Shown: positions 27,982-53,324 of the stretch, piece by piece
Position numbering within the stretch: the first letter of the stretch is position 1
Layout: every line of letters starts with the position of its first letter
From: a virus
Lineage: Duplodnaviria; Caudoviricetes
IMG/VR virus record: IMGVR_UViG_3300032285_002671
Coordinates: 1-56,880 of that record
DNA: 56,880 bases
Reading direction: 5' to 3' (one strand)
Notes under the pieces: model-generated
The model's input: the letters and a program-made list of their open reading frames with translations, nothing else
The model's database searches: none
Told to the model about the DNA's origin: nothing
Position numbers and translations under genes: made by a program

Positions 27982-28803
27982 TTATTCTTCTTCTTCCTCG
28001 AACTCATTAACAGCTCCATACTCAATACGCATTGGACTTATTTGATAACTCATTTTTATTCCAGTGTTACCATTCCTGTTCTTAGAAAACTCCATATATG
28101 TTCCTCCACCCTCACTCTCTTTTTCTCTTCTCATTTCAATCATAGCATCAGTTAAATGTTTTAACTTATTACTACCTGCAAACTCTCCTGCTTTGGTTAC
28201 TTGTTGTATTAATAAAAACGTAGTGTATACGTTATTAGTATTTTCACCTTTATTATTTCTAACACATAAATCTACTAACCATGATTCAGCCATTTTTCTA
28301 TCCCAACCATTATCATCTCTAACTCCATCAATTACTTCGGCTATAGAATCTATTAAAATAACATCCCAACCTTGATTTATAACTTGTTCAATAACGTCTT
28401 TAGTATTATATTCTAAATAATCATTTGTAAATATAGTTTTAATAACACCAAATTGATTAAATCTTTGAGTATATTTAAACATTTGTCTACGACCCATCTC
28501 AGCACTAATAAATAAACATTTATTTCCTCTATTTGACAGTCCAGATAAAACATCTAATAATACAGTTGTTTTTCCTACTCCTGGATCACCACAACACATA
28601 ATATTACTAGATGCTGGGATTCCTTCTTCATGAGATATAAATTTATCTATGTTTTTTATCCCTGATCTCATTTGACGCATCATACGTGGGTCAATTTCTA
28701 GTGAATTTAAAGTTGTTATTTCTTTAAAATCAATAATAACTGGAGGGTAAGTAATTGAATCTAAACGTGGTCTACCACGTTTTTTAGGTGCATTTTCTAT
28801 CAT
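27982..28803 (-). CDS. RadA/Sms-like RecA-family ATPase with N-terminal AT-hook
   Basis: GDPGVGKTT, FISAE, ILIDS, QVTKAGEFAG..LKHLTD, KNRNG; KKRGRPR at N-terminus. Confidence 0.8.
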   Translation of the reverse strand: MIENAPKKRGRPRLDSITYPPVIIDFKEITTLNSLEIDPRMMRQMRSGIKNIDKFISHEEGIPASSNIMCCGDPGVGKTTVLLDVLSGLSNRGNKCLFISAEMGRRQMFKYTQRFNQFGVIKTIFTNDYLEYNTKDVIEQVINQGWDVILIDSIAEVIDGVRDDNGWDRKMAESWLVDLCVRNNKGENTNNVYTTFLLIQQVTKAGEFAGSNKLKHLTDAMIEMRREKESEGGGTYMEFSKNRNGNTGIKMSYQISPMRIEYGAVNEFEEEEE

Positions 28804-28860
28804 ATTATTTATTTTATTTATTTATTAATTTTATAATATAATAATAAGATGAATATTTTA

Positions 28861-29007
28861 TTACTCCAAATCTTTCTTAAAATTTATTTCCCACCATAAA
28901 ATATATAATCTTTTTTCATTTCCTTCATTCCATTTCCATTCATAATGAAATAAAAATGAGAATCCATGTGATTTCCAAATGTTTATATTCCAGTTTTTTA
29001 TTTTCAT
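28861..29007 (-). CDS. 48 aa Trp-rich peptide
   Basis: MKIKNWNINIWKSHGFSFLFHYEWKW...; follows tRNA-like element A. Confidence 0.5.
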   Translation of the reverse strand: MKIKNWNINIWKSHGFSFLFHYEWKWNEGNEKRLYILWWEINFKKDLE

Positions 29008-29020
29008 AGTTTTTAATTAG

Positions 29021-29098
29021 CAGTCAGGACAGGATTCGAACCTGCATGTGTGATACCCTCTGCCGAGAGACGCGATACTCCAATTACGCCACCTGACT
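29021..29098 (-). ncRNA. tRNA-like element A (non-canonical anticodon arm)
   Basis: AGTCAGG/CCTGACT acceptor, TGGCGTAATTGG D-arm, GCAGG-TTCGAAT-CCTGT T-arm; anticodon loop 4-6 nt; no CCA. Confidence 0.75.
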
Positions 29099-29104
29099 AT
29101 TTTG

Positions 29105-29200
29105 CTTTTCCGTTCACACCACCCCTTGGAGTTACAGTGACTGGTTGTTTTATACTAAGTAAATCTACCAGAGAAGCGTGTCTCGATTTACTAGTATCCG
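29105..29200 (-). ncRNA. candidate structured RNA 3
   Basis: ATACTAGTAAATC/GATTTACTTAGTAT helix, inner GAGA/TCTC, possible CTGGT/ACCAG pseudoknot; no ORF. Confidence 0.4.
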
Positions 29201-29202
29201 GG

Positions 29203-29323
29203 TAGTCAGGACAGGATTCGAACCTGTAACCAGTTTTCTAAGCTCTACGTGCAGGGTTTTCACTGCCTCGTACTGGTGTCTAATCGGACATACACAGCGT
29301 CTAACCAATTCCGCCACCTGACT
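29203..29323 (-). ncRNA. tRNA-like element B (121 nt, expanded centre)
   Basis: Same acceptor and T-arm; Leu-like D-arm TGGCGGAATTGGTTAGACGC; multi-hairpin centre. Confidence 0.75.
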
Positions 29324-29329
29324 AAGTTA

Positions 29330-29551
29330 TGAATCAATCAAAAGCACTTATTTTAAGTTCAGAAGGTCATCCATTTATTCCACACAATAATCTACAATTA
29401 GCAGTAATTTCATAAGAGATATTATCATGTTTTATGCTCGGACTTATACATGTTATCAGCCATTATAGAAGCAGGCCTATTATGAGTACTTACTAAAGGG
29501 TGGACTTCATTAGAGCCTAATCCCCAGTGGGTTTAACCAATGATTGATTCA
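29330..29551 (-). ncRNA. candidate structured RNA 2 (~220 nt)
   Basis: Perfect 11-bp terminal helix TGAATCAATCA/TGATTGATTCA; no ORF; flanked by tRNA-like elements. Confidence 0.55.
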
Positions 29552-29575
29552 ATATTTTTAAAGAACGTTTTTTTG

Positions 29576-29690
29576 TAGTCAGGACAGGACTTGAACCTGT
29601 AAACCTACTTCCCATCTTCGGTTTTTTAACTCTAATGTTTAGAATGGGTCAAACCACATTAGAGTACGTATACCATTCCGCCACCTGACT
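29576..29690 (-). ncRNA. tRNA-like element C (115 nt)
   Basis: Same acceptor; T-loop TTCAAGT; anticodon arm replaced by ACTCTAATGT/ACATTAGAGT long hairpin. Confidence 0.75.
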
Positions 29691-29695
29691 ATATT

Positions 29696-29944
29696 TTAAT
29701 ATTCATCCAACATGTTAAGTTGTTTTTTTGCCATTTTAGTATCTTCTTCAGGATTTGATTTTAGTCCCAAACTAATACTCTCACCATAACAAGAACAACT
29801 TGGATTACCTTCTTTATTAACTCCAAAAGAGATAAACCCGGCACGTACTGGATTAAAATCTTTGAATTCTGAGTGTTGTAATAATTCAGAGAACACAATA
29901 ATTAATCCTTTGTTTGTAATTACATATTTTTGTTTTAAGTACAT
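29696..29944 (-). CDS. 82 aa hypothetical phage protein
   Basis: IIVFS..QHS.F...AGFI...CYGES.SL; start moved to MYLKQK so as not to overlap element D. Confidence 0.7.
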   Translation of the reverse strand: MYLKQKYVITNKGLIIVFSELLQHSEFKDFNPVRAGFISFGVNKEGNPSCSCYGESISLGLKSNPEEDTKMAKKQLNMLDEY

Positions 29945-29966
29945 CTTTATTTTGCTATTTGTTTCG

Positions 29967-30041
29967 TAGTCAGGACAGGACTCGAACCTGCGACGCATAA
30001 GTTAAATCAATAACCCCGCTCTGCCACTGAGCTACCTGACT
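29967..30041 (-). ncRNA. tRNA-like element D (75 nt)
   Basis: Same acceptor; D-arm GCTC/GAGC; T-loop TTCGAGT; GGGTTA/TAACTT stem with 6-nt loop TTGATT. Confidence 0.7.
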
Positions 30042-30045
30042 GTTT

Positions 30046-30207
30046 TTATTTCTTTTTAAAGATATAACCTTCATAGGTTTTATCCCATACCCATCTAGTT
30101 CTACAAGTCCATACCCAAACTTGTAATCTCCACCAACGTCTTAACTTAACATGCCATGGATCTTTTTCCATTTCATCCATCAATTGTTGAACAACTTTAT
30201 TTCTCAT
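30046..30207 (-). CDS. 53 aa Trp/Arg-rich peptide
   Basis: MRNKVVQQ...WWRLQVWVW; start moved downstream of element E. Confidence 0.55.
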   Translation of the reverse strand: MRNKVVQQLMDEMEKDPWHVKLRRWWRLQVWVWTCRTRWVWDKTYEGYIFKKK

Positions 30208-30221
30208 AACATTGTGTTTAG

Positions 30222-30303
30222 TAGTCAGGACAGGTACTGCCCCTGTGTTAGTATTCATTATATTCCTAACTCCCCCACTCGTGGGAACGCTTGTTACCTG
30301 ATT
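30222..30303 (-). ncRNA. tRNA-like element E (no D-stem, GGCAGTA T-loop)
   Basis: AATCAGG/CCTGACT acceptor; ACAGG-GGCAGTA-CCTGT; two internal hairpins. Confidence 0.6.
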
Positions 30304-30530
30304 ATTTGAGGATGAGAAGTCCTCCGTGTTGTATAGTTACAATAGTATCGCTTATGTACCATACGGTAGCTCTATCTGCCTCAATTCCTTTCTCAATGGA
30401 ACAACACTTGCAACTTTTGAATACCCCCAGAGTTGCCAACTGTGCTAACCTACGCTTTAGCTGATTACTTTGAGCATTGTCAAGAGGCTTATCAGGTCTT
30501 CGTTCCATACTCGTGCACAAGTAGAGGACT
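30304..30530 (-). ncRNA. candidate structured RNA 1 with kissing-loop pseudoknot
   Basis: Helices GTGTTG/CAACAC, GCAACT/AGTTGC, CTGAT/ATCAG; complementary loops TGAGAA and TTCTCA. Confidence 0.6.
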
Positions 30531-30576
30531 AATATTTTTTATAATTAACATCTTTTTATTTATTAATTTTATAATA

Positions 30577-30608
30577 TAAATATAAGATGAATATTTTATA
30601 AAGCCAAA
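30577..30608 (-). promoter_or_regulatory. promoter driving tRNA-like/ncRNA operon
   Basis: TTTG-N20-TATATTTA with no plausible protein start downstream. Confidence 0.75.
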
Positions 30609-30612
30609 TCTA

Positions 30613-30879
30613 TTATTTTTTAGATAAATAAGTTAAAGTACTTATATCCTCTTGAGTTAATGACCTCTTATTACCCCATATTGTAGTAAGAATATCTAAT
30701 AATTCTGTTTCATTATGTGTTTGAGGATTTCCATTAAATAATTCAAACTCTTTAACTTCAATAGGTACATAACCTTCATCGTATAATTCATCAACTAATT
30801 CTTGTTTATCACTTGATGACAACCCCCAAAGTACATCATCTATGTCTACATCTACTGATACTGATACTGATCCTCTCAT
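30613..30879 (-). CDS. hypothetical protein
   Basis: 88 aa ORF. Confidence 0.65.
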   Translation of the reverse strand: MRGSVSVSVDVDIDDVLWGLSSSDKQELVDELYDEGYVPIEVKEFELFNGNPQTHNETELLDILTTIWGNKRSLTQEDISTLTYLSKK

Positions 30880-31394: not shown

Positions 31395-31440
31395 AACCTT
31401 TTATTTATTAATTTTATAATATAAATATAAGATGAATTTT

Positions 31441-32157
31441 TTAATTCTCCAAATCTATTATTTTATTTTCTAAACTTAGAATTGCATATTTCCATTTAAA
31501 ACCACCTGCTGTTTTTTGTTTTCCTAAACAACAAGCACGAATATCTCCTTTTATTTTTTTATTTATTTCTTTAATAGAAACCCATTCTTGAATAAATTCA
31601 TCTTGTAAATTATATTGAAGGACAGGTTTGGTAGATTTAACCCAAGATTTTCTATTTTTAATACTTATTTTAAGATTTTCTATATGTTGAGAGCTAAATA
31701 TTTTACCTTTTTTAGTTCTACTCATTTTTTCTTTAACTTCTTCTGAGAATTTAGTACCTTTATTTCTACTAATACCCTTGTTTGACTGGCTTATTTTTTG
31801 TCTTAATTCAGGAGTCATAAAATTTTTAGGTTTGGATTTATTTTTAATTTTTAATACCCAATCTATTTTAATTTTTTCATATGTTCTATTTGATATTATA
31901 TATCGGTTGTTTTTATTTTTTTGTTTTCCAATAGACATCAAAAATAAAGCATACCATAACTTTTCATTATTAGGATAAATTTCTGTTAATAATCGGTGAC
32001 ATAGAAAATGCTCTCTTGCTGTTAATTCTACTAAATTTATTTTATCATTATTACCTCCCATACAACGAGGAATAATATGATGTTTTTCTTTATATCCTTC
32101 TAATTGACGTGATTTAGCTCTTTCTATAATTTGATTATAAATTTTTTGATAGTTCAT
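31441..32157 (-). CDS. HNH homing endonuclease with NUMOD3/NUMOD1 domains
   Basis: EKHHIIPRCMGG...NLVELTAREHFLCHRLL; KTAGGFKWKY. Confidence 0.9.
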   Translation of the reverse strand: MNYQKIYNQIIERAKSRQLEGYKEKHHIIPRCMGGNNDKINLVELTAREHFLCHRLLTEIYPNNEKLWYALFLMSIGKQKNKNNRYIISNRTYEKIKIDWVLKIKNKSKPKNFMTPELRQKISQSNKGISRNKGTKFSEEVKEKMSRTKKGKIFSSQHIENLKISIKNRKSWVKSTKPVLQYNLQDEFIQEWVSIKEINKKIKGDIRACCLGKQKTAGGFKWKYAILSLENKIIDLEN

Positions 32158-33527: not shown

Positions 33528-34313
33528 CTAACTAATTTTATATCTCCAAATAAAATTACCTGCTGTTTTGCTAACTCCTCTAGCACAATTTTCAATAGAA
33601 CTTCTACTAATGTTGGTATTTATAGAAGCTTCATAAATACTATCCCATTCTTTTAATGAAATAAAATCAGAATTATATTGAATAACTTTTTTATATTTGA
33701 TATTTCGACTCCCTGGTGGAAATTTTTTTCCTTTATTATGGTTAGTATATCCTAATTTTCTACCTGATTTATTATATGTTACTTTATTTATTATTTTATT
33801 TGAATCTATATATTTCCAGTTAAACCCACCAGATGATTTTGTTTCTTCTCTAGCGCAACTTTCAATACCGCCCTTATTTATTTGTAAATATTTACTTGCT
33901 TCTGTAGGTGAATTAAAAGTTTTAATATATTCTCCTTGTAAAGTATATTGTTCTATTTGTTTTCTATTATCAAATCTTTCTTTACTTTGTATAGAATGTA
34001 TTTTATTCTTGAAATTTTCATATATTCTAGAACTAGTAGCATGTCGTTTTTGATTTCCTAATCCATTAATCATACACCACATAGCATAATACATTTTATT
34101 TTCTTGAGGTGTTCCTTTATATATTTCAACTAATAATCTATGACATATATAATGTTCTTTAGGTGTCAATAATACTAAATTATGTTTATTGTTTGAACCT
34201 CCTAAACTTTTAGGAATAATATGATGTTTTTCAAATAGTATTCCTTTATTCTTTTTTCTATTTAATTTTTGAGTATTACTTATAATACTGTTGTAAATTT
34301 TTTGATAATCCAT
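33528..34313 (-). CDS. HNH homing endonuclease with two NUMOD1 domains
   Basis: EKHHIIPKSLGG..NLVLLTPKEHYICHRLL; repeated IEQY..S..EA..IE.CAR..GF.W.Y. Confidence 0.9.
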   Translation of the reverse strand: MDYQKIYNSIISNTQKLNRKKNKGILFEKHHIIPKSLGGSNNKHNLVLLTPKEHYICHRLLVEIYKGTPQENKMYYAMWCMINGLGNQKRHATSSRIYENFKNKIHSIQSKERFDNRKQIEQYTLQGEYIKTFNSPTEASKYLQINKGGIESCAREETKSSGGFNWKYIDSNKIINKVTYNKSGRKLGYTNHNKGKKFPPGSRNIKYKKVIQYNSDFISLKEWDSIYEASINTNISRSSIENCARGVSKTAGNFIWRYKIS

Positions 34314-36356: not shown

Positions 36357-37499
36357 TTAATGACTATCTCCTACGTCATGTTTTTCTCCATAAATTAAAT
36401 AATCTGGATTGATTACTTTAGCTACCAAATGACGATTACCACATACACTTTTAATAACAACACCTTCGTGTGGTACTTTAGTTCCTGGAATACCATCATA
36501 TAAAAATTTAGTTTGCAATTCTTGATACCAAGGTCCAACATATAATTCTTCTACGTGAGGTAAATTAAATACATTTGCAATTACGTGTTTAGTACGAATT
36601 GTATTTTGATACACTCCATCCTCAACAAAGTCAAATCCTGTAAATTGAATATCTTTTAATCCATAATCATAATTCTTTTGAATACCAGGACCATAAATCT
36701 CTCCATATAATATTACTCCATTGCCTATTACTTTTGGTCCGTGTAATTTAACATATGTCCATAACTTATCTTTAATATCATACTTATCAGCAATAGTTCT
36801 CCAAACATCTGTATCATAGAATCCTTGTGAATCGGAACCCTTCTCTACGTTGTGTGAACCATAAACGTATTCATATTCAATCCACTCATCAGCCAACCTG
36901 AAGAACTTCTTTACTTTATCCCAAAATGATAATCCTCTTTTCTTAACAATACCATAACGAGCATTAGTACCATGAATCTTACGGGTGATTTGAACAACAT
37001 CCAACCCACTAATAAACATTCCAGTAACGTTTTTAATGTTAGGGAATTTGTAATACACTCCAAAGTTTGGATTCTGATGATACTTAATCTTACGTCCTGA
37101 TGCTAATTGTACTTGTACAGCTGGTGGTTCGTATTTGAAAATATTCATTACTTCCATCATATCCTTACCTTCTGTGTAAGTATTTATATTACCTTTAGGT
37201 ATATATTTTAAAGGTATAATCAAACACTCAGAATATACTCCTCTTAACTTAACGGTACGTACACGTTGACCTTTACGTAAGTAATTAGTTACATTCATTG
37301 AATCAGATAATTCTTGAGGAATGACAGCATCTGTAGTTGCTACTACAACCAAACCGCCCTCAGAGTATTGTCCTTTTTGTATGATACAATTCCATCCTCC
37401 GATAACTGCTTGTTCGATGTTATCAGCTCCTGGGATTGCTTTAATTTCATTAATTTTTGCTACGTAGCAAACACTATTAGCGTTCTCGAGTTTATTCAT
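36357..37499 (-). CDS. RNA ligase (DRB0094 / Rnl5-like, N-terminal OB fold)
   Basis: IPGADNIE..GW, KLRGVYSE, KIHGTN, GEIYG, EGVV, KVINPDY. Confidence 0.85.
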   Translation of the reverse strand: MNKLENANSVCYVAKINEIKAIPGADNIEQAVIGGWNCIIQKGQYSEGGLVVVATTDAVIPQELSDSMNVTNYLRKGQRVRTVKLRGVYSECLIIPLKYIPKGNINTYTEGKDMMEVMNIFKYEPPAVQVQLASGRKIKYHQNPNFGVYYKFPNIKNVTGMFISGLDVVQITRKIHGTNARYGIVKKRGLSFWDKVKKFFRLADEWIEYEYVYGSHNVEKGSDSQGFYDTDVWRTIADKYDIKDKLWTYVKLHGPKVIGNGVILYGEIYGPGIQKNYDYGLKDIQFTGFDFVEDGVYQNTIRTKHVIANVFNLPHVEELYVGPWYQELQTKFLYDGIPGTKVPHEGVVIKSVCGNRHLVAKVINPDYLIYGEKHDVGDSH

Positions 37500-45385: not shown

Positions 45386-47266
45386 TTATAAAATTGTTCC
45401 GTTTAATACTTTAGTTGTACCTAATACTTTACCATCACATTCAACTACTGCTAAATATGCACTTGGAGGTAAAGAACTTAAGTTAGCTGTGTATCTGTAT
45501 TGTCCTTTAGGCATTTTACCATCATATATGCTTGATACTTTATTACCATTCATATCAACAAAATATACTGAAGCATATGCTGCTGATGGAATGTTAAATT
45601 GTACTGCTACTACACCTGAAGTTGGATTAGGATAAACCATAATGTTAATTTCACCACTCATAGTAGCTACGTTTTTAGTTTTAAATACTTCAACTCTACC
45701 ATCTGTAGGTCTGATGCTTAAGTCTTTAGCTGTTTCATTACCAACGAATTTACGAGTTACATATAATGGTGAACCATTCCAATCTGATTTAGGCTTTTTA
45801 GCATAGAACTGTAATATAACAGCTTCTTGTCCGTCTTTAATTTTATTTTCTTCACTCATATCAACTCCACCCCATTCTACAACACCGTTATTAGCGTTAG
45901 TAAATGACATCCATTTAGAAGTAGCTTCTTTTGTAGTTACTCCTTTAAATTCTAATAAATCAGTATCGTATTTCATTGCTAACTGGACAGCCCCTAGGGT
46001 CTGTCCGTTAGTCAATACTTTTACAGGAATGTTTACTAAATTACCTTCTTCAACGTTTAATGTAGGTAAATTAACTTCCATTTCGTTTAAGTTAGCATAG
46101 TAATCAGTTGTTTGGTCTATAATAAAGTTAGGAGCATTTAATGGATTAGTTATCTTAATTGGAACTAATCTAGCCATGTGATATCCAGTTTCGTTTACGT
46201 CACCTGTTGCTAACACATATACTGTAATTGAATCAGTACCGGTTCTAATTATATATGAATAATTAGCTGTTCCTGGAAGTAACGTGCTATAGTTAATCAT
46301 ACTATCTTGAGTGATTGTGTTATAATCAGCTTGTGTAAAGAATCTTACATCAGGAACTGAGAATTTAGTAAATCTACCAGCGATTCTATTAAAGATTGTA
46401 TATACGTCTGATATTGAAATACCACCGTTATTGTTTACGTCTGATGTATGGAAATCAAATGCTTTTGGACGTTCAATACCCATTACAAATCTATTTACTT
46501 TCTGAGCATCTGCTGTAGTAACTACGTTACCTAATGTTAAAGTATCACCTTGTACTTCAATTTTACAAGTCCAATATGTAGTATCTACAATAGGGCTAAA
46601 TCCAAATTTACCACTTAAATCTGTTGTATCAACTGATATTAATGACCAGTTACCACCAGTTTTTGGTTGTTTCCATAAACCAACTAGTAGATTCTTAGTT
46701 CCAGTACCTGTTACGTTTTTAAATGAACCTGAGAAATTAATACTTGGTCTAACAAATATACCACCTGCGTTAAATTGTGTTAATGTTGTATCTTTACCAA
46801 TGTTTGTAGAAGCTATTGTTGGGTAAGTATTATCAAATGCTAACGCGTTTATTTTTGTTAAATATTGAAAGGTTGATGCAGTACTATGTTTAAAATTAAT
46901 ATTGAATAATTCACCTGATGGATATGTGTAATTTAAATCAGGTCCGTTATATACTGATGTGATTACAATTTTATCACCACTCACGTAGTATTGTAGGTAA
47001 TGAAGACTTGAATCAGCAGTTGTTAATGATACTATAGGGTTAGTAAACGCTACTGCATCATAGGTAATTTTAAATTGTAAAGCGGTAATTTTCGTTGCTG
47101 TTGTGTTATTGTAACATAATTTAACATTAGTTTCATTAGCAACAGATGAACCAACACTGTATGTTGGTTTGATAATAATTGAGTTTCCGTTAGGAGTTGG
47201 ACATGTTTGTGCTGTGACTAGCAGTGTCGTTGTAATCAACGATAGTAACAATAGTATTCTTTTCAT
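45386..47266 (-). CDS. cohesin-dockerin scaffold protein with T9SS C-terminal sorting domain
   Basis: Signal peptide VTA-Q; two cohesin-like domains (ALQFKITYD, AVQLAMKYDTDLLEF); DVNNNGGISISD dockerin loop; VYPNP..LPPSAYL..K CTD; start MKRILL. Confidence 0.8.
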   Translation of the reverse strand: MKRILLLLSLITTTLLVTAQTCPTPNGNSIIIKPTYSVGSSVANETNVKLCYNNTTATKITALQFKITYDAVAFTNPIVSLTTADSSLHYLQYYVSGDKIVITSVYNGPDLNYTYPSGELFNINFKHSTASTFQYLTKINALAFDNTYPTIASTNIGKDTTLTQFNAGGIFVRPSINFSGSFKNVTGTGTKNLLVGLWKQPKTGGNWSLISVDTTDLSGKFGFSPIVDTTYWTCKIEVQGDTLTLGNVVTTADAQKVNRFVMGIERPKAFDFHTSDVNNNGGISISDVYTIFNRIAGRFTKFSVPDVRFFTQADYNTITQDSMINYSTLLPGTANYSYIIRTGTDSITVYVLATGDVNETGYHMARLVPIKITNPLNAPNFIIDQTTDYYANLNEMEVNLPTLNVEEGNLVNIPVKVLTNGQTLGAVQLAMKYDTDLLEFKGVTTKEATSKWMSFTNANNGVVEWGGVDMSEENKIKDGQEAVILQFYAKKPKSDWNGSPLYVTRKFVGNETAKDLSIRPTDGRVEVFKTKNVATMSGEINIMVYPNPTSGVVAVQFNIPSAAYASVYFVDMNGNKVSSIYDGKMPKGQYRYTANLSSLPPSAYLAVVECDGKVLGTTKVLNGTIL

Positions 47267-47334
47267 AGTAAATAATTTTTTTATAAAGAGCAACCATATA
47301 AAAAAACCAAGATACTAGAATAGTATCGCTTGAC

Positions 47335-53233: not shown

Positions 53234-53251
53234 AATTATTTTTAATTTTTG

Positions 53252-53324
53252 AACTCAGGACAGGATTCGAACCTGCATCTACCTAGCTACAATGCTAGGG
53301 CGTTACCAATTACGCTACCTGAGT
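53252..53324 (-). ncRNA. tRNA-like element F (73 nt)
   Basis: ACTCAGG/CCTGAGT acceptor (compensatory change relative to A-D), same T-arm, CCTAGC/GCTAGG stem with 6-nt loop ATTGTA; no CCA. Confidence 0.75.

Follow-up and report, generated by a model that had tools for sequence, protein, structure and literature searches.

What kind of RNA, if any, is encoded at positions 30304–30530 of the IMG/VR virus record IMGVR_UViG_3300032285_002671 (Duplodnaviria; Caudoviricetes)? An earlier note on this DNA had read the minus strand of the stretch as one switchable unit of about 227 nt, in which a pair of kissing hairpins competes with a terminal helix, and had suggested a switchable non-coding RNA, riboswitch or ribozyme. 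In the present work, we examine this proposal by means of homologue collection, covariation and model searches, and weigh it together with several other explanations. The comparison of homologues indicates that the 227-nt stretch is two adjacent, independently conserved phage non-coding RNA modules on the minus strand, neither of which is in Rfam 15. The 121 nt on the 5′ side and the 100 nt on the 3′ side belong to separate families, called family 1 (30410–30530) and family 2 (30308–30407) in the following, that lie apart at nearly all other loci, and the reading as a single unit is accordingly given up. That both families are conserved structured RNAs is in our judgment close to certain.

The locus and its setting

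The window, by which we mean the whole stretch of 56,880 nt that was analysed, is a record with a completeness of 36% (CheckV). It is AT-rich, and its minus strand holds nearly all genes. Pfam recognises a baseplate J-like protein, an ATP-dependent DNA ligase, an RNA ligase, a thymidylate synthase and a protein with a type-IX-secretion sorting domain, the last of which presumably hints at a Bacteroidota host. The RNA ligase gene lies at 36357–37499 and may have a role in tRNA repair, and the protein with the sorting domain, which has cohesin domains as well, is encoded at 45386–47293 (both on the minus strand). Two paralogous minus-strand ORFs, at 31441–32157 and 33528–34313, stand on either side of the DNA ligase gene; they share an HNH-like N-terminal motif, recognised by eye, and are probably homing endonucleases.

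The stretch 30304–30530 sits in an island with a G+C content of 0.40–0.44, compared to 0.13–0.33 in its surroundings. Just upstream of it, and of the RNA array that it opens, a 43-nt AT-rich repeat with a promoter-like appearance is found on the minus strand at 30555–30597. The window contains three minus-strand copies of this repeat (28817–28859, 30555–30597 and 31400–31442), while 100 shuffles contain none. Each copy stands ahead of a transcription unit, with protein genes after the 28817–28859 and 31400–31442 copies, and the position of the repeat suggests that it is probably a phage-specific promoter. A scan for the sigma-70 promoter consensus and for terminators found no enrichment.

On its other side, the composite is closed by a degenerate tRNA-like unit on the minus strand at 30222–30303, AAUCAGG...CAGG-GGCAGUA-CCUG-U-CCUGACU-A, which is probably a signal for RNase P and 3′-end processing. 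The string CCTGTCCTGACT occurs in six copies in the window, compared to 0.09 expected. A similar tRNA-like unit follows family 1 in two other loci (L022 and L025), and an AGUCAGG-like unit lies at most 14 nt after 48 of the at least 137 distinct copies of family 2.

Six such units can be discerned on the minus strand of the window, at 29021–29098, 29203–29323, 29575–29690, 29966–30041, 30222–30303 and 53251–53324. They have a near-identical acceptor stem (AGUCAGG/CCUGACU) and T arm around cores that are not those of tRNAs. The anticodon loop of one unit is of 8 nt, two others have inserts of 59 nt and of about 45 nt, in another a tetraloop hairpin replaces the anticodon arm, and one has an altered T loop. 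The same tRNA-like ends surround different inserts in other metagenome contigs. To judge from their sequences, the six units look like tRNA scaffolds with foreign payloads. ARAGORN and Rfam report tRNA-like matches at 29021–29098, 29203–29323, 29967–30041 and 53252–53324 only. A tryptophan-rich ORF of 70 aa (30046–30258, minus strand) has its start within one tRNA-like unit and its end shortly ahead of the following one.

At the gathering level of Rfam 15, tRNA-like matches are the only ones in the window. When the thresholds are relaxed, a single further match appears within 30304–30530, a weak and partial one to the abiF motif. Over the stretch itself, neither ARAGORN nor Rfam reports a match to a tRNA or tmRNA model. 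The suggestion that the RNA belongs to a class absent from Rfam is thus borne out, the sub-threshold abiF match being the sole one, and at the homologous loci searched no Rfam family covers family 1 or family 2 either. In the literature, we found no prior description of either family, and the 8,495 candidate phage RNAs from IMG/VR of PMC10690425 may include them.

It is important to point out that the folding energy gives no signal on either strand relative to shuffled sequences: the z-score of the entire stretch is 0.12, and that of the 3′ half is −0.93. The support for structure must therefore come from the comparison of homologues. The contigs of one sequencing run, which we guessed to be of RNA, do not cover 30425–30538 and are uninformative on expression.

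Family 1: collection and distribution

A blastn search of INPHARED with the window copy of family 1 gave one match, in an uncultured phage of 462 kb, where the homologue lies between tRNA-Gln and tRNA-Gly; three other members used as queries gave no match in that database. Two pattern scans of viral contigs returned 24 and 109 stretches, and 89 full-length copies, 70 of them distinct, were collected with nhmmer. These RNAs are roughly 105–200 nt in size, and the covariance model R1 scores all 70 distinct members at 72.7–128.8 bits.

A tRNA or tRNA-like unit adjoins 30 of the 70 members, and a tRNA is found within 100 nt upstream in 14 and within 100 nt downstream in 16. No protein neighbour is constant. 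The commonest is a glucosaminidase, which is present at 34 of 88 loci, and a general protein partner is therefore not indicated. At five loci reached via a neighbouring KaiC/RecA-like protein, family 1 was found in none.

Members in prokaryote genomes were also sought. The pattern scan gave 47 hits, compared to about 69 expected by chance from 17 fixed bases in 596 Gb (our own arithmetic). In these 47 loci nhmmer found weak partial matches in 18 and no full-length copy, and none of the 18 has the flanking elements of family 1 on inspection. Run over 151 sampled genomes of one phylum, R1 gave four weak hits of 18–22 bits, none of which proved to be a member when inspected.

Structure of family 1

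By comparative analysis, the fold of family 1 is one of four helices with an H-type pseudoknot and a loop–loop tertiary pair. Over the 70 distinct sequences, 98.5% of the cells of the 25-pair structure are paired, compared to 75.7% for shuffles and at most 46.8% for slid partners, and 20 of the 25 pairs vary on both sides, although these counts lean toward the structure since the alignment was fitted to 17 nested pairs. The pseudoknot and the tertiary pair were outside the alignment model, so that the alignment was not fitted to them, and they were first seen in a mutual-information scan. That the stretch encodes structured non-coding RNA, as the earlier note had it, is thus borne out by covariation among homologues.

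All elements described here are on the minus strand and are taken from the 5′ end. The tail at 30523–30530 reads AGUCCUCU (consensus AGCCCUCU) and is conserved in alignments A2 and A3. Its C residues are the probable partners of the J2/3 strand's GG in P1: in a second subfamily (B, see below) the CCC closes a hairpin directly with the GGG of GGGA.CGAAGA, and RNAfold applied to the core likewise pairs these bases. The P1 pairs are near-invariant, and covariation can therefore not test them. Next comes P2, the 14-nt self-complementary hairpin ACUUG-UGCA-CGAGU at 30509–30522, all five stem pairs of which change on both sides. A helix ACTTG/CAAGT had been listed earlier; it clashes with this covarying hairpin, in which ACUUG pairs with CGAGU, and is dropped.

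The joining strand AUGGAACGAAGA at 30497–30508 is invariant in A3. Both search patterns had the strand AUGGANCGAAGA fixed, which by itself makes it invariant among these sequences; in seven further members, taken from loci that were picked for family 2, the joining strand varies at few positions only. It leads into the variable P3 arm (30461–30495), the base of which is the helix CTGAT/ATCAG (30495–30491 with 30465–30461). P4, CUAA-AGCGUAGG-UUAG, follows at 30445–30460, with all four stem pairs changing on both sides. The last helix, P5, is GCAACT/AGTTGC (30436–30431 with 30415–30410); all five of its pairs change on both sides, and its loop CUGGGGGUAUUCAAA is conserved. The helices at the base of P3 and in P5 had both been proposed previously, and both covary in the homologues.

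The H-type pseudoknot spans 30410–30444 and is formed by C30442-A30441-G30440 with G30428-U30429-C30430 inside the P5 loop. Its columns 198/216 are CG in 56 and UA in 11 sequences, columns 200/215 are AU in 38, UA in 30 and CG in 2, and columns 201/214 are invariant GC. Between the loops of P4 and P5, G30450 faces U30421 and A30451 faces U30420. The corresponding columns 190/223 are UA in 41, GU in 24, GC in 3 and AU in 1 of the 69 cells with letters, and columns 189/224 are AU in 49 and GU in 13, with 7 other combinations.

Self-complementarity of P2

In subfamily A of family 1, the length of P2 is constant at 14 nt. Of 35 distinct P2 sequences, 34 have a self-complementary tetranucleotide at their centre, be it UGCA, GCGC, GGCC, UCGA or UAUA. 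The sole exception is L057, which has a non-palindromic loop. By our arithmetic, a random tetramer is self-complementary in 1 of 16 cases, and going from one of the tetramers to another takes two coordinated changes. Within a single hairpin, the bases of a 4-nt loop are unable to pair with each other, and the constraint therefore fits a 14-bp duplex between two molecules. A cofold of P2 with ViennaRNA gives −23.5 kcal/mol for the duplex dimer, compared to 2 × −3.3 kcal/mol for the hairpins.

In subfamily B, P2 is replaced by a 9-nt loop, which is closed where the 5′ CCC pairs with the GGG in the joining strand. The centre of this loop is palindromic in all 27 distinct members (GUAC in 20, GGCC in 6 and GCGC in 1), which were found in a search that left the four central loop bases free. 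Taken at the level of sequence, subfamily B is a second structural solution to the self-pairing requirement. This pattern makes it likely that family 1 homodimerises. Two molecules would then join through P2, subfamily A by means of a duplex and subfamily B by means of kissing palindromic loops.

Family 2

The first clue to family 2 was a metagenome contig of 4.7 kb that matches 30305–30409 only, with conserved ends, a diverged middle and different flanks. Pattern scans gave 3 metagenome loci and 68 and at least 120 viral loci, and the distinct homologues number at least 137, the search allowing arms of 25–55 nt. The exact two-hairpin pattern gave no locus in viral contigs. Model R2 scores 76.5 bits on 30305–30409. 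Of 100 sources picked irrespective of family 2, 6 contain it.

Every string quoted in the earlier note is found on the minus strand where the note had placed it, and three of its helices make up this family, again on the minus strand. The closing helix GTGTTG/CAACAC (GUGUUG/CAACAC in the RNA) joins 30407–30402 with 30331–30326. Inside it are hairpin 1, TTCC-ATTGAGAAA-GGAA (30401–30385; loop AUUGAGAAA), and a hypervariable arm (30332–30384), and hairpin 2, GAGGA-CTTCTCA-TCCTC (GAGGA-CUUCUCA-UCCUC in the RNA), lies at 30324–30308. All four pairs of hairpin 1 and all five stem pairs of hairpin 2 change on both sides, and for the closing helix a compensatory variant, GUAUUG/CAAUAC, is seen once, in L172. 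Hairpin 2 is paired in only 84.5% of cells because one subtype does not have it. This subtype comprises 45 distinct sequences (L255–L279 and others), retains a UUCUCA element at the same spacing, and ends with AAUGA-GUUCUCA-GCAAG after a conserved hairpin. The strings of a further proposed helix, TACC/GGTA, fall within the hypervariable arm. The long-range pairing GCCTC/GAGGC, which had been put forward as possible, would link the conserved abiF-like loop of family 1 to this arm, and it is not retained.

For the proposed kissing pair TGAGAA/TTCTCA the outcome is mixed. The two loops are indeed complementary, and the loci that were picked without regard to family 2 provide one compensatory double change, UGAUAA/UUAUCA in L079:1631–1709, and one G·U wobble in L053. 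On the other hand, one mismatch occurs (L191), and 5 of the 6 pairs are unvarying among 81 distinct sequences, part of which were selected with the loops fixed, so that the support is thin. We lean toward regarding the kissing pair as real. As a whole, family 2 looks like another payload-carrying scaffold.

The two families are seldom found together. Among a set of 58 loci of family 2, family 1 was present at two only, the window and L025, and a few more co-occurrences were found at other loci of family 2. In the window, the modules adjoin with no tRNA-like unit between them. In L315, their order is reversed and a tRNA-like unit separates them.

The P3 arm and the abiF motif

We now consider the P3 arm of the window, to which the abiF match belongs. 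Its outer stem has 5 bp and is followed on the 5′ side by a single bulged A. The 3-bp inner stem AGC/GCU and an 11-nt loop come next, and the 3′ side has an internal loop that starts with CAAA, so that the arm reads CUGAU / A / AGC / 11-nt loop / GCU / CAAAGUA / AUCAG. This is the architecture of the abiF motif, except that the outer stem has 5 bp (6 in the consensus) and the internal loop 7 nt (also 6). Model RF03085 matches 30469–30489 with its positions 8–28 of 37, at 24.9 bits and an E value of 0.14, which falls short of the gathering score of 37 bits; a control, the abiF copy of S-CREM1, gives 52.2 bits. Compared to the consensus at positions 8–28, 18 of the 21 bases of the window arm are equal. 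The loop CUCUUGACAAU is identical to the abiF consensus CUCUCAACGAU at 8 of 11 positions, and natural copies vary too, that of genome G151 being CUCUCACAGAA.

Other members come closer. The arm of L085 is identical to the consensus at model positions 9–23, i.e. over the whole loop and two pairs of the inner stem, which locally amounts to only 17 bits, and the loop of L027 is 1 base of 11 away from the loop of the abiF RNA that lies directly upstream of an Abi_2 gene in G151. The evidence moderately favours, in our view, a relationship between the window arm and abiF, as judged from sequence and shape.

The arms of the 70 members can be divided into classes. A short hairpin is found in 29 and an abiF-like arm, with a loop starting with GCCUCU and in some cases an inserted hairpin, in 22, a group to which L027 was moved by eye. 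A second recurrent type, with the flanks GAUUACWGA and GGCGWGGA, is found in 12 (L005, L003, L026, L048 and others), and Rfam gives no match for it. The remaining 7 have other arms. A further recurrent type, with the flanks GAAAGUC and GCCACUAAAC, is seen in L096, L361, L365, L372, L389 and L402.

What could an abiF-like arm do in a phage RNA? According to 10.1101/2025.04.15.648962, the toxin AbiF is bound and neutralised, in cis as well as in trans, by the abiF-motif RNA RCd22, which needs the stems of both of its abiF motifs for this. AbiF is modelled there as a homodimer, and AbiF/Abi_2 systems are linked structurally to Cas13 ancestors. In the record of the window, no Abi_2 gene was found at E values up to 0.1, the record being 36% complete, so that a phage-borne copy could lie outside it. 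Five other records with abiF-type arms, among them the 462-kb phage record, which was searched in full, have no Abi_2 gene either. Of the 151 sampled genomes of the tested phylum, 12 contain Abi_2 genes and 1 has an abiF RNA above the cut-off.

A possible if doubtful reading of these data is that the family 1 RNA of the window acts as a decoy antitoxin against AbiF. The conserved core would be a scaffold that displays the P3 arm, the dimer would show two abiF-type hairpins, and the RNA would keep a host AbiF-like toxin silent during infection. We speak of a decoy rather than of a true antitoxin because the Abi_2 gene is absent from the phage record. Against the decoy stand the sub-threshold score of the window arm and the 3 of 11 loop bases that differ, as well as the scarcity of Abi_2 genes and abiF RNAs in the sampled genomes and the incompleteness of the records. 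Furthermore, since 29 of the 70 members have a short hairpin and 12 a different arm, the conserved core must serve a purpose of its own, which the decoy leaves unexplained.

Alternative explanations

The single switching RNA of about 227 nt, alternating between the kissing-hairpin form and one in which the 5′ end is paired with GGAGGACU, draws on a complementarity of 8 bp that is real: the 5′ strand AGTCCTCT (30530–30523, minus strand) can pair with GGAGGACT (30325–30318), and these positions are paired in the minimum-energy structure of RNAfold. In the tail, the C-to-U change of the window relative to the consensus perfects this helix and is otherwise left without explanation; the same U is present in L315, another member with family 2 nearby, and the two modules of the window adjoin without an intervening tRNA-like unit. 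However, the mutually exclusive terminal helix would join two independently conserved families and has no comparative support. The 69 other members of family 1 keep the 5′ tail without a downstream partner, at least 137 distinct copies of family 2 retain hairpin 2, and of the few loci that hold both families, L315 has them in reversed order around a tRNA-like unit and would have a G–G mismatch in the helix. The folding z-score and the searches for known families tell against it as well. Self-cleaving ribozyme classes of Rfam have no match over 28700–30800 at E values up to 10, nor in 16 other loci of the two families, no riboswitch family matches, and no result points to either function. We therefore regard the switch as very improbable. 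A protein of 72 aa, encoded at 30302–30520 on the minus strand, would fare worse still. An open frame with a TTG start is present, and conservation of its coding pattern had been named as something that would speak against an RNA, but the frame meets a stop after 4 codons in 48 of the 70 homologues and stays open for at least 50 codons in only 3. The arm lengths range from 20 to 122 nt irrespective of frame, and the substitutions in the helices are compensatory, so that this reading is practically refuted.

Two further explanations accept family 1 as an RNA in its own right and differ in what it does. Its core could be a ligand-binding aptamer, either as a riboswitch for the downstream gene or as an RNA sponge for a small molecule. 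The compact pseudoknotted fold with its many invariant unpaired bases would suit such a role, and in the group with short arms P5 is followed by a U-run and a protein gene, the glucosaminidase neighbour mentioned above being a case in point. Yet there is no variable expression platform, and the same fold stands between tRNAs (L001, L015, L027 and others), with no gene for it to regulate, or, in L026, ahead of an apparent terminator made up of a hairpin and a U-run. Together with the lack of a match to known riboswitch families and the conserved self-pairing element, which an aptamer leaves unexplained, this makes the idea quite improbable. Alternatively, family 1 might act in trans by titrating or mimicking a host factor different from AbiF (an RNase or an RNA-binding protein, for instance), or it might stabilise or process the array, P3 being decorative. 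This would account for a core that is kept irrespective of the type of arm, for its frequent place as the first unit past the promoter-like element and within tRNA arrays, and for the want of a constant protein-gene neighbour. It does not explain why several discrete, recurrent, structured arms, including one that matches a known antitoxin motif, should appear at a single position, and for a host factor no candidate partner was found; we consider it rather unlikely.

Our preferred explanation thus keeps the anti-AbiF decoy as one of its parts. The stretch would be the head of a phage small-RNA array that is transcribed from the repeated phage promoter. A dimerising family 1 scaffold with a decoy arm would come first, with family 2 as a second scaffold, and tRNA-like units would punctuate the array, probably directing RNase P and 3′-end processing. 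We hold this explanation as a whole with somewhat less than even confidence. A more general proposal is that diverse environmental phages use the self-dimerising pseudoknotted scaffold to present swappable P3 decoys, i.e. the abiF mimic and at least two other types, and that these scaffolds, with family 2 and the tRNA-like punctuation, constitute RNA-only anti-defence cassettes that are cut by the tRNA-processing enzymes of the host. In this wide form the proposal is speculative and distinctly unlikely to hold.

Implications and comparison with known systems

Whatever their function, the two families are well-supported new RNA families (70 distinct members and 27 of a second subfamily for family 1, at least 137 for family 2) that are suited to structural work. 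Family 1 would offer a natural homodimer with two alternative solutions for the joining, and tRNA-like units whose cores are foreign may be natural analogues of the tRNA-scaffold and tRNA-guide arrays that have been engineered. Very few cases of counter-defence by RNA mimicry are known, and here a documented antitoxin motif is carried without its toxin by many uncultured phages, on a scaffold that seemingly pairs with itself. If the decoy is true, AbiF/Abi_2 systems face a widespread RNA-based antagonist, and the other types of arm are leads to further RNA-controlled defence systems.

The habitat of the two families has precedents. The stable species 1 and 2 RNAs of phage T4 are structured RNAs of its tRNA cluster, and S-CREM1 has wcaG, manA and abiF RNAs among its tRNAs. 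Families 1 and 2 share the tRNA-cluster habitat with the T4 RNAs and with the manA, wcaG and freshwater-1 motifs, while they have no match in sequence or structure to manA, wcaG or freshwater-1. In one locus (L046), a freshwater-1 RNA (RF02979, 86 bits) lies at 1382–1443 in the same tRNA cluster as one copy of family 1 and two of family 2. A T4-like cyanophage has a stand-alone abiF hairpin between two tRNAs (PMC9964418).

The P2 element can be compared to the dimerisation initiation hairpins of retroviruses, which are kissing loops with a palindromic centre. The 9-nt loop of subfamily B similarly has a 4-nt palindrome between A residues that is kept through sequence change, and subfamily A likewise retains a fully self-complementary 14-mer. 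The differences are that the palindrome is of 4 nt, that the molecule is a small phage RNA and not a viral genome, and that the dimer is here predicted from sequence.

With abiF RNAs and RCd22, the window arm shares the outer stem, the one-base bulge, the 3-bp inner stem, the 11-nt loop that starts with CUCU and the internal loop that starts with CAAA. Unlike them, it is part of a larger pseudoknotted RNA, whereas abiF motifs stand alone or in tandem, and it is not located upstream of an Abi_2 gene. Antitoxins of the ToxI type consist of repeats in tandem, which the toxin cuts. No tandem repeat is present within 30304–30530 and no toxin gene was identified nearby, in which respect the RNA differs from ToxI. 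A parallel is offered by pseudo-ToxI, an RNA of phage PhiTE that is reported to imitate a type III antitoxin (PMC3475682): family 1 would similarly be a phage-borne, toxin-less mimic of a host RNA antitoxin that blocks abortive infection. Family 1 would differ from it in imitating another motif and in mounting it on a conserved scaffold.
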